Positions 10,151-22,004 of a DNA stretch of 64,000 nt are shown piece by piece. Source of the stretch: Escherichia phage Killian; the sequence record OQ446694.1; one strand, given 5' to 3'. The position numbers and the translations under genes were made by a program. Below the pieces are notes generated by a model that made no database searches, was not told the DNA's origin, and saw nothing but the letters and a program-made list of their open reading frames with translations. How positions within the stretch are numbered: position 1 is the stretch's first letter; the number at the start of each line of letters is the position of its first letter.

Positions 10151-10207
10151 GTTATTTTCCTCTAATTATTTTCTACTCCAAGGCCGCATGAATACACGGC
10201 CGATAAA

Positions 10208-10423
10208 TTAATCGTCGCAGTCGACGATTAATTCCCAGAACTCTTCTACAGTATAAGTTTCAGTATCATTTTCAATACAGAAACGTTCATTACTGTTATT
10301 TGCTAAAGTAGCGTTAACTGTCATTTTCTCGCTAGTGCTTTTAAGAGGTGAAATACGAATTAACTGATCACCATTATCTAAACAGAAAATTTCACCGACC
10401 TTTACATCTTTAAAAATTTTCAT
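10208..10423 (-). CDS. Hypothetical protein (71 aa)
   Basis: ORF track, ATG start; ndd.x-type ORF. Confidence 0.5.
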   Translation of the reverse strand: MKIFKDVKVGEIFCLDNGDQLIRISPLKSTSEKMTVNATLANNSNERFCIENDTETYTVEEFWELIVDCDD

Positions 10424-10743: not shown

Positions 10744-10857
10744 TCACATAAATCCAAAGTAAGCGTTTAATACATCAATCATTAAAACGATTGGGAATAT
10801 ACTCAAAACTACTAGTATTATAACTACATTCCATATAGCTTTAACAATCTTTTTCAT
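10744..10857 (-). CDS. Hydrophobic micro-protein (37 aa)
   Basis: ORF track 10744..10992 trimmed: the upstream part contains a promoter; ATG at 10857 has SD GGAGG; MKKIVKAIWNVVIILVVLSIFPIVLMIDVL... Confidence 0.4.
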   Translation of the reverse strand: MKKIVKAIWNVVIILVVLSIFPIVLMIDVLNAYFGFM

Positions 10858-10885
10858 TTTCTGTTCCTCCGTAGTTGATAGGGTA

Positions 10886-10917
10886 ATAATACCACAGAAG
10901 AACAGTCTTGTAAACAA
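10886..10917 (-). promoter_or_regulatory. Early sigma70-type promoter
   Basis: Minus strand GTTTAC-18 nt-TGgTATTAT. Confidence 0.5.
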
Positions 10918-16104: not shown

Positions 16105-16134
16105 ATTATACCACATCCTTGTGGTAAAGTAAAC
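16105..16134 (-). promoter_or_regulatory. Early sigma70-type promoter (near-consensus)
   Basis: Minus strand GTTTAC-18 nt-TGgTATAAT; the -35 overlaps the gene 39 stop codon. Confidence 0.6.
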
Positions 16135-17951
16135 TACTGGCTCATCCATTCTTTACGAAGATCAGCATTATCTCCCATAAGCATTTCAAAAAGATCTTTC
16201 CAGTTCTCAGGAAGTTTAACAACGTCATAAACTGGGTTCTGAATCATTTCACGGTATTCAGATTTTTCCAAAGAGCCAAGTCCCTTAATATAACGGATGC
16301 TATGTTTAGGTAGAGCATCTTTGGCACTCTCATATTCAGCGACTGTATAAAACCATTCTTGTTTTTTACCGACCTGAGCGATGATTACAGGAGTTTTAAC
16401 AAAACGAATTCTTCCTTGTTCAAACAGTTCTGGCCAATTACTAAAAAATCCGAGCAGAGAAGGATAAATACTTCCTAGACCATCATGGTCGGCATCGGTC
16501 ATAATTGCAATATTATGATAATTCAAGTTTTCGGCTTTTTCACCAAGAACTAATCCAGTGATTGCGCAAATATCAAACAGTTCTTTGTTTTTAAGCATAT
16601 CAGCATAAGACATACCCCAACTGTTGAGAACTTTACCGCGCAATGGATAACCGCCATGAAGTTCTTTATCACGAACATCAATAAGATATCCGATAGCAGA
16701 ATCGCCCTCAGTCAAGAAAAGAGTAGTATCAGCATCTTTACCACAAAGATTCGCTTTGATATGTTTATGAACCTTAGCTTTAGAGGCCTTTTTAGCTGCT
16801 TTAGTTTCTGCTGCCTTTTCTGCCGCCAATTTACGAGCCAAGGCAGCTTCAATAATTGGCATTAAAATTGCTTCATTATTTAAAATAGCACGTGAAATCT
16901 TTTTAGCATCAAGCTGAATATGACTACGGATTTCACCAAATGGAGAAGTCAGACGCTCTTTAGTTTGAGAGTCAAATCGCATGTTTTTCATATCACGAAC
17001 AAACATAACGATAGTCAAACATTCTTTAACACGTGCTTTAGTTACGTCAATTTTAAATTTACGTTTGATTTGTGGAATAAGGTCTTCACAAATATCATCC
17101 ATAACACAGTCAATGTGATGGCCACCATTCTTAGTATGAATGTTATTGACGTATGTTAATTGACGAAAACCATCGGGTGAACGACCAACCGCAATAGAAC
17201 AGTTTTCTTGTTCTTGAACGATAGCATGCTCATCATATTGGCGTGCGTATTTCTTAAAATTACCCTGAACCTTTTTACCATTAAAGGTAAATTGAATATC
17301 AGGATAAACTACTGCAAGTGTCTGGAGACGATCTAGTGTAATGTCAAGATAAACTTGAGATAGCTCATTAGTTTCAAATGACATAAAATCAGGAATGAAA
17401 GTAACACGTGTTCCTTTCCATTTTCCAGGAATATCTTCCCATGATTTATTTTCCATGCCATTTGAACAACGAACTACAATATTATTTTGACCGTCGCCAG
17501 TTTCACCGACAAACATCACAGAAAAAATGTTAGTTAAACTAGAACCAACACCGTTCATACCGCCAGTGACGCGTTCTTTGTCATCACCAAAGTTACCACC
17601 TGCTTTTGGAATAGTCCAGGCAGCAACAGGACCAGGAATTTCTTCACCAGTAGGTGTTTTAACCATCGCTTGTGGAATACCACGACCATTATCTTCAACT
17701 GTTACTTGGTTGTTTTTGATAGTAACATTAATTTTATTCGCGAATTTAAACTTAGTACGAATACCTTCATCTACTGAGTTATCGATAATTTCATCAATAA
17801 GCTTAACAAGACCAGGTACATACTGAACACTTTCCCATTTACCAAACAGAAAGCGCTCATGCATTTCATTAGCGGAAGAGCCAATGTACATGCCGCTACG
17901 CTTTTTGATATGTTCAATATCGCTCAGAATTTTAATTTCATTCTTAATCAT
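16134..17951 (-). CDS. 39: DNA topoisomerase II large subunit gp39, uninterrupted (605 aa)
   Basis: MIKNEIKILSDIEHIKKRSGMYIGS...; GyrB-like ATPase and TOPRIM regions in one ORF; ATG at 17951 with SD GAGGA (track start is GTG one codon upstream). Confidence 0.92.
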   Translation of the reverse strand: MIKNEIKILSDIEHIKKRSGMYIGSSANEMHERFLFGKWESVQYVPGLVKLIDEIIDNSVDEGIRTKFKFANKINVTIKNNQVTVEDNGRGIPQAMVKTPTGEEIPGPVAAWTIPKAGGNFGDDKERVTGGMNGVGSSLTNIFSVMFVGETGDGQNNIVVRCSNGMENKSWEDIPGKWKGTRVTFIPDFMSFETNELSQVYLDITLDRLQTLAVVYPDIQFTFNGKKVQGNFKKYARQYDEHAIVQEQENCSIAVGRSPDGFRQLTYVNNIHTKNGGHHIDCVMDDICEDLIPQIKRKFKIDVTKARVKECLTIVMFVRDMKNMRFDSQTKERLTSPFGEIRSHIQLDAKKISRAILNNEAILMPIIEAALARKLAAEKAAETKAAKKASKAKVHKHIKANLCGKDADTTLFLTEGDSAIGYLIDVRDKELHGGYPLRGKVLNSWGMSYADMLKNKELFDICAITGLVLGEKAENLNYHNIAIMTDADHDGLGSIYPSLLGFFSNWPELFEQGRIRFVKTPVIIAQVGKKQEWFYTVAEYESAKDALPKHSIRYIKGLGSLEKSEYREMIQNPVYDVVKLPENWKDLFEMLMGDNADLRKEWMSQ

Positions 17952-17978
17952 CACTTATCCTCGTTTGGTTTCGGGAAT

Positions 17979-18839: not shown

Positions 18840-19253
18840 TTATTCCTTAAAGTGAGCTTTCAACATCTGATACAATGACCATGCCTGTATATTATTTTCA
18901 ATAGTAATGTTCATAACCGGGAATTCAGATGGATCAGTTATTGTTGCAGATTCTTCCTGCTCTTCAGCTGCCTGGTATGGATTTTCAACTTCATTAAAGA
19001 ATTCAGCTTCATTCGATGAAAGCCAAATAAAATCTTCATCCAAAATATCTTTACCAGAAGATAGTACTAAATTTCCAGCAAATGACATAATTTTAATAGG
19101 ACGCCCAAGAGCATCCACATCTAAAATTTTAAAAGGATGCATACCTAAACGGCGTGCATAGATTCCGTTATCAGTATGGTCTTTAATAAAATTTTCTTGA
19201 GCTTGTTTATTTTTAAATTGATACCATTTATTAACTTCAAATTTAATAGCCAT
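18840..19253 (-). CDS. Hypothetical protein (137 aa), goF position
   Basis: ORF track, ATG start; synteny only. Confidence 0.5.
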
Positions 19254-19468
19254 TAATAAATTTCCTTCCAGTAAGTTGTACCATCTTCAGTGATTTCGCG
19301 AAATACACCGTAAATTGGTTGTTTATCCCCAACCTTTTCATACACATAAACCGAAGTCAAGTGAGTAAACTTAGCAGTGTGTTCCTTTTGAACTACTACC
19401 AAATCTGGATCGAATAACACATCTTCAAATTCGTCATTAGTGCAGTTCTGAACAATTTTACGTTTCAT
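19253..19468 (-). CDS. cef: Cef-like protein (71 aa)
   Basis: 71 aa and position between 39 and motB as for T4 cef; size and synteny only. Confidence 0.45.
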
Positions 19469-19640
19469 TACAATTTCCTCGTTAATTGAACATTGGAGCG
19501 ATGCGTTTCAGAAGAGTAGCAGCACCTTTGGCAAATTTTCCATTTTATTCTCCAAGTTATTTTCTGTATCAGTAGTTGATATTGATATAGTACCATAATC
19601 AACTACTGATGTATATAGTTTTATGAAAAAATTTTAAACT

Positions 19641-20138
19641 TTATGCATAGCGAGCTTTGCTATAGTGTTTAATCCAACTTTCAGGAATGACTTTGTATGT
19701 TCCTAAAAATACCGCGTTGTACAACTTAACGCCATCTTCTACCCATTGATCGGTAATGTATGCACACATAGCACGAGTACGACGTTTTTGAACAACCCCT
19801 TCTTCATCTTCGGTAAATTCAAATTCATAAGGAGCGACGAACTTAATAGCTTGACCGAGTTTCCACTTAAAGTCTACACCTACATGCGAAGTATCAATCG
19901 TTTCAATTCCTTTGGCAGGAACAGCTTTCAAAAACGCAGATTCAAGAAATTTCGCGCGAACATAGCCAAACTGGGGTTTAGACTTTCCATCTTTAGGAAT
20001 GATACGCACTTTTACTTCAGAATCTTCATCTTTAACGCCGTGTTTAAGCTGAATGCTTACAACTTCAACCAATTTTCCTGCTGCTTTAGAACGGGATTTA
20101 TCAGATACACGAGCAATTTCGCCAATATTAATAATCAT
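19641..20138 (-). CDS. motB: MotB-like DNA-binding protein (165 aa)
   Basis: Size and position upstream of dexA; basic protein. Confidence 0.6.
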   Translation of the reverse strand: MIINIGEIARVSDKSRSKAAGKLVEVVSIQLKHGVKDEDSEVKVRIIPKDGKSKPQFGYVRAKFLESAFLKAVPAKGIETIDTSHVGVDFKWKLGQAIKFVAPYEFEFTEDEEGVVQKRRTRAMCAYITDQWVEDGVKLYNAVFLGTYKVIPESWIKHYSKARYA

Positions 20139-20183
20139 AGTTATCTCTCACTTGTTAAAAAGATTTTATACTCCACAGAACCA

Positions 20184-20211
20184 TTATACTCTGGTCCCAA
20201 GAGTTTGTAAA
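20184..20211 (-). promoter_or_regulatory. Early sigma70-type promoter upstream of motB
   Basis: Minus strand TTTACA-17 nt-TATAAT. Confidence 0.55.
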
Positions 20212-20214
20212 CTA

Positions 20215-21257: not shown

Positions 21258-21284
21258 TTTATTATCCTCAGTAGCTATGGTGTT

Positions 21285-21314
21285 ATAATACCACAACTAA
21301 CCGAGGAAGTAAAC
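21285..21314 (-). promoter_or_regulatory. Early sigma70-type promoter
   Basis: Minus strand GTTTAC-18 nt-TGgTATTAT. Confidence 0.5.
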
Positions 21315-21320
21315 AACTTT

Positions 21321-22004
21321 TTATCGTTTTGTTGGAAGAGATAGAGGATCGCACTCTTCCTCTGACGGAGCATCTTCAAGACCCATAGCATATCGCAAAG
21401 CATACTTCATCATCAGGATGTCTTTCGCACAATCATGAATAGAATCATGCGCAACGAATCCGTCTAAAGTTCCCTTTGGAAGAGGACATGTGGTCATATC
21501 ACGAACAAGCAGAAGTGCTTCAATTCTGGTACGAATATCACGCTGATTCCAGAATTTACATGGTTCTAACTTAAATGTATCAAGCTCATTCTCAGAAACG
21601 CCGTTAAAACGTTGAATATCGCGAATGAGATCAACTAAAATTGGAAAATCAAACGACATTCCACGGCACCAGCCTTGAGATTTCCAAGGATCGATGTTAT
21701 GTGCATTGATGTAATCATTAAATTTTGCAATACCATCGATAGTGCTTACATCTTCATCTGACGGCGCAATATTTTTTCGAGCTTCAGGAGATTGATTTTT
21801 CCACCATTCGATAGTGCTTTTAGTAAAAAGACGATGTCCTTTTTGGCTTTTTAAATCAAACTTGATTTTAATGCCGCGTGAAACTAATTCATCAAATGTT
21901 TCAACTACTTCTGGATTAGGGTCAAAGGCAATAACAGCTAAGTCAATAACAGCTGCTTTTTCACCGCTTCCCATTGTTTCAAAATCTATAATAAAATCAA
22001 ACAT
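21321..22004 (-). CDS. dexA: Exonuclease A DexA (227 aa)
   Basis: 227 aa; DEDD-type exonuclease motifs (FDFETMG, HDSIHD); synteny with dda. Confidence 0.85.
   Translation of the reverse strand: MFDFIIDFETMGSGEKAAVIDLAVIAFDPNPEVVETFDELVSRGIKIKFDLKSQKGHRLFTKSTIEWWKNQSPEARKNIAPSDEDVSTIDGIAKFNDYINAHNIDPWKSQGWCRGMSFDFPILVDLIRDIQRFNGVSENELDTFKLEPCKFWNQRDIRTRIEALLLVRDMTTCPLPKGTLDGFVAHDSIHDCAKDILMMKYALRYAMGLEDAPSEEECDPLSLPTKR

Follow-up and report, generated by a model that had tools for sequence, protein, structure and literature searches.

A perfect inverted repeat around a candidate early promoter between motB and cef of a T4-like phage: the probable stem of a PeSL-type stem-loop

What role could be played by a perfect inverted repeat that is centred on the -10-like element of a putative promoter, in the spacer between two early genes of a T4-like phage? 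The palindrome in question occupies positions 19568-19610 of the stretch of DNA analysed here (64,000 nucleotides of Escherichia phage Killian, sequence record OQ446694.1), which is referred to below as the window. An earlier note had described it as a 13-bp perfect inverted repeat with a 17-nt spacer, and re-reading of the sequence confirmed this description. We consider it probable that the palindrome constitutes the stem of a stem-loop within a sigma-70-type early promoter cassette of the PeSL (promoter-early stem-loop) kind, which bounds two early transcription units. Its relevant form is most likely a nucleic-acid structure, in the read-through RNA coming from motB.

The motB-cef spacer and the promoter within it

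The window represents a Tequatrovirus (T4-like) genome, whose closest record is UGKSEcP2 (99.9%). The gp39 topoisomerase large subunit is encoded by a single continuous ORF of 606 aa (16134-17954, minus strand), compared with the split genes 39 and 60 of T4, and the window is therefore a relative of T4 and not T4 itself. All genes around the palindrome lie on the minus strand, in the order dexA (21321-22004), homologues of motB.2 and motB.1, motB, a 172-bp spacer, cef and goF. The palindrome is located in this 172-bp spacer and precedes both an 11-aa ORF remnant and cef. Its placement upstream of motB in the earlier note is wrong, since motB is read from the minus strand, so that the palindrome follows its stop codon, at a distance of 30 nt. 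The motB ORF is annotated as a 'MotB-like transcriptional regulator' in both UGKSEcP2 and T4, and its own promoter-like site is found at 20211-20183. The features of the region are as follows:

19641-20138, minus strand: motB, 165 aa (from the ORF list), with the stop codon TAA at 19641-19643
19616-19640, minus strand: A/T-rich stretch AGTTTAAAATTTTTTCATAAAACTA, at the position of an UP element
19610-19615, minus strand: -35-like hexamer TATACA (pattern scan), overlapping the sense-strand 5' arm by one base (its own last, the arm's first)
19598-19610, minus strand: hairpin 5' arm ATCAGTAGTTGAT, filling the promoter spacer (about -30 to -18)
19587-19595, minus strand: extended -10 within the loop, TGg TACTAT, with TGn at 19595-19593 and the hexamer at 19592-19587
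19568-19580, minus strand: hairpin 3' arm ATCAACTACTGAT, with which the shared module leader begins (predicted +1 to +13)
19541-19553, minus strand: SD GGAG (19553-19550) and ATG (19543-19541), which end the module on its 3' side and are left unpaired by the main hairpin
19508-19543, minus strand: ORF remnant of 11 codons, MENLPKVLLLF*, left from an 89-aa ORF
19253-19468, minus strand: cef, 71 aa, the first gene after the cassette that is intact
18840-19253, minus strand: goF, following cef
19568-19580, plus-strand reading: left arm atcagtagttgat
between the arms, plus-strand reading: 17-nt spacer attgatatagtaccata
19598-19610, plus-strand reading: right arm atcaactactgat

Read on the sense strand, the motB stop codon is followed by AGTTTAAAATTTTTTCATAAAAC-TA-TATACA-TCAGTAGTTGATTATGG-TACTAT-ATCAAT-ATCAACTACTGAT-ACAGAAAATAACTT-GGAG-AATAAA-ATG, with the distance between GGAG and ATG noted as 7 nt (GGAG-7 nt-ATG). 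The -10-like element is indeed central in the palindrome, as the earlier note had it, in the form of the minus-strand sequence TGgTACTAT (19595-19587). The promoter spacer is 17 bp long and ends with the TGG of the extended -10, and 19595-19591 pairs with 19587-19583 in an inner helix of 5 bp around a 3-nt loop. The pattern scan identified 17 early-promoter modules on the minus strand of the window, 15 of which carry TTTAC(A/T) at -35; the TACTAT -10 hexamer is also present in five other modules of the window. The same scan bore out the claim that the -35 is degraded: TATACA stands where other modules have TTTAC(A/T), and it fits TTGACA in four of six positions and the T4-early TTTACA in five. 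By the usual rule of 7 nt from the -10, which was used to set its position, transcription is predicted to start at approximately 19580, where the 3' arm begins.

Upstream of the -35, the sequence TTCATAAAAC of the A/T-rich stretch matches TTCACAAAAC, which precedes the -35 in other copies of the module; T4-type early promoters have an A-rich region at -40 to -44 (PMC1524935). Among Tequatroviruses, the T-run that separates the motB stop codon from the -35 ranges from about T5 to T13, which is a homopolymer length polymorphism at the UP-element position.

The copies used for comparison were modules 38830 and 11640 of the window and the promoter of the e.8-like gene of two Mosigviruses (TACTATACAACTATCAACTACCGATACAGAAAAAACTTGGAGAATGAAATGG). 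The 3' arm is part of the leader common to the modules, and the 5' arm stands where these copies have the unrelated spacer TCCCTGTTCTTCCGTGG. The leader as a whole is nearly identical to that of the Mosigvirus e.8-like promoter (ATCAACTACCGATACAGAAAA..TTGGAGAAT) and resembles those of modules 38830 and 11640. The view that a promoter-leader module had been turned into a palindrome was thus correct, in the sense that the spacer of a repeated early-promoter copy is now complementary to its own leader. Judging from these elements, a T4-type early promoter probably precedes cef, nested in the hairpin. Our search of literature and data found no T4 TSS or term-seq dataset and no named T4 early promoter at the motB-cef site, and papers on MotB, GoF, DksA and T4 omics yielded no transcript mapping of the spacer.

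A connection with MotA, which the earlier note had suggested, was not borne out. We looked for (a/t)(a/t)(a/t)TGCTTtA centred at -30, 11-13 bp before the -10, and found no MotA box (TGCTTtA) there; the sequence from -35 to -24 is CTATATACATCAG, which lacks TGCTT. Table 1 of PMC2988021 lists no T4 middle promoter between 5349 and 10058, and MotB is reported as a non-specific DNA binder (PMC7827196). A late promoter was also considered and rejected, as the motif TATAAATA is absent from the sequence of the motB-cef element.

The cassette is adjoined by a region of considerable variability. The 89-aa ORF is intact in many Tequatroviruses (e.g. P8), in which it ends just before the SD of cef; its product matches phrog_3720, of unknown function. 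Alignment of the window, T4 and P8 revealed a 208-bp deletion, common to the window and T4, which has left the 11-codon remnant. In phage ES26, a larger deletion joins the SD region of the module directly to the ATG of cef. Three indel alleles (the intact 89-aa ORF, the 208-bp deletion and the ES26 cef fusion) are therefore found directly downstream of the palindrome. Because of these deletion scars, the cassette can be said to adjoin an indel hot spot, and in effect to serve cef and goF.

Stability and conservation of the stem-loop

The motB-cef palindrome is the longest perfect inverted repeat in the window at a spacer of up to 30 nt. When the window was simulated 300 times with a first-order Markov model, arms of at least 13 nt occurred by chance with a mean count of 0.063 per window, and 6% of the simulations had one, so that the length of the repeat, taken by itself, is of only borderline significance. 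A repeat search extended the palindrome to 20-nt arms with 85% complementarity and a 3-nt gap. The second-longest perfect inverted repeat in the window is a 12-bp one at 10206-10233 (AATTAATCGTCG / CGACGATTAATT, with a 4-nt loop).

Folding of the minus-strand RNA gave -23.6 kcal/mol over 101 nt (z = -4.9), a stability that was reached by none of 200 shuffled sequences. The predicted stem-loop comprises the 13-bp perfect stem and the 5-bp inner helix, with values of -20 to -24 kcal/mol and z-scores of -4.9 to -7.3. It is A/U-rich, with G-C pairs at four of the 13 positions of the stem. When folded as a DNA hairpin, the same element had a predicted energy of -11.5 kcal/mol (z = -5.1). A search of Rfam with region 19200-19900, both strands, returned no matches at E <=1.

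The earlier note had named, as what would refute its reading, an absence of the palindrome from close relatives with identical expression of the downstream gene. This is not what was observed: the palindrome was found in 497 relatives and is identical in 479 of them, and T4 itself carries the 43-nt element unchanged. The comparison with neighbouring blocks is given below:

19568-19610, palindrome block: identical in 479 of 497 full-length Tequatrovirus records
19611-19653, the 43 nt upstream: identical in 217 of 497
19525-19567, the 43 nt downstream: identical in 17 of 486
20170-20212, core of the neighbouring motB promoter: identical in 8 of 671 full-length records

The core of the motB promoter is 95-99% identical in 450 records. 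The palindrome block has one or two differences in 18 further records; the one variant inspected among these, the laboratory T4 mutant record T4_583L, carries two dinucleotide deletions outside the arms, which are possibly sequencing artefacts. Among relatives recovered from IMG/VR and metagenomes with flank-anchored patterns (5 and 7, respectively), the palindrome was unchanged in all 12, and the T-run and the leader varied. The palindrome block is under strong constraint. Since the element is almost invariant in Tequatrovirus, selection on its sequence and selection on its structure are inseparable within this genus.

Such invariance within one genus might equally be expected of a functionless by-product, i.e. 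of a single templated correction of a quasi-palindrome, which copied the leader into the spacer in an ancestral Tequatrovirus and has since persisted in a conserved promoter. Templated quasi-palindrome mutations are said to have been classically described in T4, by Ripley in 1982. The 13 perfect pairs have sharp edges, and the right arm corresponds to the ancestral module leader, the spacer alone being new, which is consistent with an origin of this kind. However, hairpins centred on the -10 recur in many genera with different arms and compensatory changes, for which a single accident is insufficient, and the intergenic DNA on either side is much less conserved than the spacer. We therefore regard a mere by-product as improbable, but the Tequatrovirus version of the hairpin may have been obtained by selection through a templated event.

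Hairpins around the cef promoter of other Tevenvirinae

Homologues of Cef were found in 1012 phage records across the Tevenvirinae. The DNA upstream of cef was read in Mosigvirus, Dhakavirus, Kanagawavirus, Karamvirus, Moonvirus, Jiaodavirus, Gelderlandvirus and Gaprivervirus, as well as in approximately 40 IMG/VR loci. Most of these loci have a promoter of the form GTTTAC-17-TGnTAYWAT directly before cef, whose spacer is complementary to the beginning of the leader. In Mosigvirus, Dhakavirus, Kanagawavirus, Karamvirus, Moonvirus, Gelderlandvirus and several IMG/VR lineages, the cef promoter is surrounded by a hairpin with the -10 at its centre. Outside Tequatrovirus, the arms are 6-12 bp and the loops 5-16 nt long, and most z-scores range from -3.3 to -5.2. 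The arms are unrelated to those of the window (e.g. GGTGTAGG/CCTACACC, GGTAGGAGC/GCTCCTACC, GGGCTAT/ATAGCCC and TAGGGTA/TACCCTA). This applies also to Dhakavirus, which shares the TATACA -35 of the window and has different arms; the -35 of Mosigvirus is TGTACA.

Two exceptions were encountered: in the Mosigvirus record SA79RD a mismatch weakens the hairpin (z = -0.1), and in Jiaodavirus there is only a small hairpin inside the spacer. The latter, of the form CCACAAGGA(C)TGTGG between -35 and -10 (L046, L083-L085), also occurs in three minus-strand modules of the window (62003, 16133 and 11640) and forms a second class of promoter stem-loop, defined by its position. Upstream of cef in one Gaprivervirus no early promoter was recognised by the pattern used, and a hairpin (GAUAGGG-UUUUUG-CCCUAUC) is retained on the same CCCTATC leader. 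At locus L048 (Gaprivervirus EAWsc9, 640-690), likewise lacking a recognisable early promoter before cef, the hairpin is preceded by ATTATAAAAATG, which agrees with the T4 late-promoter motif TATAAATA in seven of eight positions.

Several groups of arms differ by changes that compensate each other, such as GGGCTAT/ATAGCCC, GGGTTAT/ATAACCC and GGTCTAT/ATAGACC, or GGTAGGAG/CTCCTACC compared with GGTAGAAG/CTTCTACC. Covariation was quantified after 26 distinct sequences had been aligned without gaps, with the promoter boxes as anchors. Paired cells accounted for 73.1%, in comparison with 33-43% when the partners were slid. Changes on both sides were found for nine of the 15 pairs, and the number of double-change cells (57) was reached in none of 500 shuffles; the covariation score was 0.331, against 0.06-0.18 for slid partners. 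Complementarity around the -10 of the cef promoter is thus what is selected, the sequence of the arms being free. The hairpin is kept even where the leader has been swapped (Tequatrovirus) or the promoter is unrecognisable (one Gaprivervirus), which implies that selection acts on the structure itself and not only on a repeat prone to recombination.

This pattern bears directly on the proposal of the earlier note that the palindrome is an operator for a dimeric (or tetrameric) regulator, with 13-bp half-sites flanking the -10, so that the bound protein would shut the promoter off. The perfect dyad symmetry around the -10 resembles that of palindromic operators centred on a promoter core (lac O1, LexA-box type), the mechanism by which T4 early promoters are shut off is stated to be unknown (PMC2988021), and co-evolution with a homodimer could in principle also give symmetric changes in the half-sites. 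The arm has, however, no second copy in the window, where the best other matches have two mismatches and are scattered, and it occurs in a single place in the records of most relatives; other hairpin-embedded promoters of the window have unrelated arms. In contrast to lac O1 or LexA-box operators, the arm sequence is neither shared with other sites nor conserved across genera, in which the length of the arms (6-13 bp) and the loop (5-17 nt) also vary and only complementarity is kept, with G.T positions tolerated within the helices. Moreover, a simple dimer would not usually have half-sites whose centres are separated, as here, by 30 bp. An operator is consequently a very unlikely explanation.

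The mismatches found inside the helices comprise 10 G.T and 5 A.C, small and phylogenetically dependent counts, whose balance leans weakly towards RNA of the sense strand. This strand test gave no clear preference for RNA, which leaves some room for a structure at the DNA level (a supercoiled cruciform or a single-stranded DNA hairpin) that would act as a recombination or template-switch site for module shuffling and have no role in RNA. For the PeSLs described in PMC2839356, recombination junctions are reported in or beside the stem-loop, together with the detection of mini-circles. The motB-cef palindrome is itself followed immediately by the three indel alleles, and its predicted DNA hairpin is as significant as given above. 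On the other hand, the junction of the 208-bp deletion is situated at the start of the ORF, about 25 nt past the hairpin, between short AAAA(C/T)TT repeats, and a 17-nt spacer makes the extrusion of a cruciform costly. A recombination site would also have no obvious need to arise anew in many genera, with new arms, always at the same place around the -10. A purely DNA-level role is therefore unlikely in our opinion, and we return to a hairpin formed in read-through RNA.

The PeSL class and the origin of early transcripts

PeSLs were described for RB49 and phi1 (Arbiol et al. 2010, PMC2839356) and later reported for T4/PST and KVP40/nt-1, also near indels (Comeau et al. 2014, PMC4122927). According to the definition given in PMC2839356, such a cassette begins with an A/T-rich sequence at the stop codon of the upstream gene and continues with sigma-70 boxes, a stem-loop, an SD and an ATG; the stem-loop falls into five positional subclasses, one of which overlaps the -10. 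The motB-cef element fits this class. The TAA of motB is followed by AGTTTAAAATTTTTTCATAAAAC, which is A/T-rich and intergenic; the -10 and the 17-bp spacing agree with the promoter boxes of PeSLs of the T4/PST type (TTTACW N17 TAYWAT), with TATACA departing from TTTACW at one position; a stable stem-loop overlaps the -10; and the GGAG and ATG open the 89-aa ORF in relatives and the 11-aa remnant here. The repetition and the association with indels that are typical of PeSLs are represented by the 17 module copies in the window and by the 208-bp indel abutting the element. The motB-cef copy differs from the described PeSLs in its weakened -35 and in its A/T-rich stem, which replaces polyG/polyC. 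A further difference concerns the T4/PST PeSLs, whose stem-loops are drawn by Comeau et al. just upstream of the promoter (PMC4122927, Fig. 3 legend), whereas here the arms bracket the -10.

The authors of PMC2839356 proposed that the stem-loop serves as a terminator or attenuator of upstream transcription. They tested one example, from RB49, and found it to lower the expression of a reporter to the same extent as rrnB T1. The motB transcript might accordingly be thought to end at a canonical intrinsic (Rho-independent) terminator, and the stable hairpin just after the motB stop codon, between co-directional genes and tens of nucleotides past the stop, is a trait that it shares with the intrinsic terminators and 3'-stabilising hairpins of bacterial operons. 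Unlike these, it has a low-G+C stem (four G-C pairs of 13), an embedded promoter which looks functional, and no U-tract, since the stem is followed on the sense strand by ACAGAAAAUAAC. A terminator scan reported nothing at the site, and the hairpins found at the same site in other genera precede A/C-rich leaders. In view of the A/U-rich hairpin, the missing U-tract and the negative scan, canonical intrinsic termination is very unlikely, and terminator activity of the PeSL type is doubtful for the motB-cef copy.

Two other candidates were dropped. A site for RNase III was rejected because the helix of 13 + 5 bp is borderline and the 7-12-bp stems of other genera would presumably be too short. 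A link with oriA was abandoned, since a review places oriA near soc and gives no motif common to the origins (PMC3016281).

The reading which we prefer, that of a hairpin at the border of two early transcription units, finds its direct support in the repeat, in the homology to the promoter module, in the conservation and in the covariation of equivalent hairpins in other genera. As we infer it, the promoter is active from the predicted start, RNA is the relevant strand, and the fate of read-through RNA is affected in the following way. RNA reading through from motB would hold both arms and would form a stable hairpin (approximately -20 kcal/mol) 30 nt past the motB stop codon. RNA begun at the embedded promoter would start at the 3' arm, lack the 5' arm and form no hairpin; because the predicted start at about 19580 excludes the 5' arm, the hairpin should be formed only by read-through RNA. 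It may attenuate read-through, or block 3' exonucleases or the processing of read-through RNA, and the promoter, with its weakened -35 and extended -10, would restart transcription towards cef and goF. The genes motB, cef and goF are all early in T4, at the level of both RNA and protein, according to the supplement of PMC9697503; this timing is compatible with the boundary model but is no proof of it.

A comparable arrangement is known from the leaders of T4 e, soc, 49 and I-TevI, in which a late promoter lies inside an inhibitory hairpin that sequesters the SD and/or the AUG, as reviewed in PMC3014915. The motB-cef element resembles these leaders in having a promoter inside the hairpin, with both arms present in read-through RNA and the 5' arm absent from RNA started internally. 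It differs from them in that the promoter is of the early type and the SD is outside the helix, so that the sequestration seen in those leaders is not found. The helix ends at 19568 and the SD starts at 19553, 14 nt outside it. The only other pairing predicted is a weak helix between the U-run and GGAGAA, which includes two G.U pairs and in which the length of the U-run is strain-variable. Translational masking is therefore not evident from the predicted folds of the motB-cef copy.

Other hairpin-embedded promoters extend into the SD. The promoter of the motB.2 homologue (module 21290; 21259-21314, minus strand) has the structure TTTACT-17-TATTAT, and its spacer CCUCGGUUAGUUGUGGU pairs with the leader and the SD (ACCAUAGCUACUGAGG). 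This hairpin has a predicted energy of -23.7 kcal/mol (z = -5.8), and a C>U change in P8 keeps a G.U pair. In this case, read-through RNA would be expected to mask the SD, and promoter-started RNA would not. Another early promoter at about 10836-10914 on the minus strand (module 10891; TTTACA-17-TATTAT) likewise has a spacer, CUGUUCUUCUGUGG, which pairs with the leader and the SD (CUACGGAGGAACAG; z = -4.7). The ORF that follows it starts with MKKIVKAIWNVVIILVVLSIFPIVL and encodes, by appearance, a small membrane protein. Two IMG/VR loci with cef-like ORFs of approximately 30% identity (L087 and L089) carry a promoter of the form TTGCWT...TATACT within a helix of 8-12 bp, whose 3' arm reaches into the SD (UAAUACAGGAG), which suggests that the same hairpin-promoter architecture exists in a much more distant lineage.

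On a broader and more tentative view, which we consider possible rather than probable, hairpins enclosing the -10 may be a general switch for Tevenvirinae early promoters, responding to the origin of the transcript and kept for the cef promoter by compensatory evolution. Read-through RNA would fold the leader of the next gene onto the promoter spacer, in several cases together with the SD, and each early gene would depend mainly on its own promoter for stable or translated RNA; the late switch of e, soc, 49 and I-TevI would thereby have an early counterpart. The upkeep of the hairpin across genera and the pairing of the SD (modules 21290 and 10891, loci L087 and L089) make the handling of early transcripts according to their origin a testable idea.

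To conclude, the element between motB and cef belongs to a largely described class, and a new kind of regulator is not needed to account for it. What goes beyond the published description is that the hairpin of the cef promoter is kept across many genera by compensatory changes, and that the pairing of spacer and SD in several copies suggests a different handling of read-through and local RNA. If this is true, it would help to explain how the densely packed early genes of T4-type phages are insulated from one another, and it would provide a simple rule for the annotation of such cassettes.
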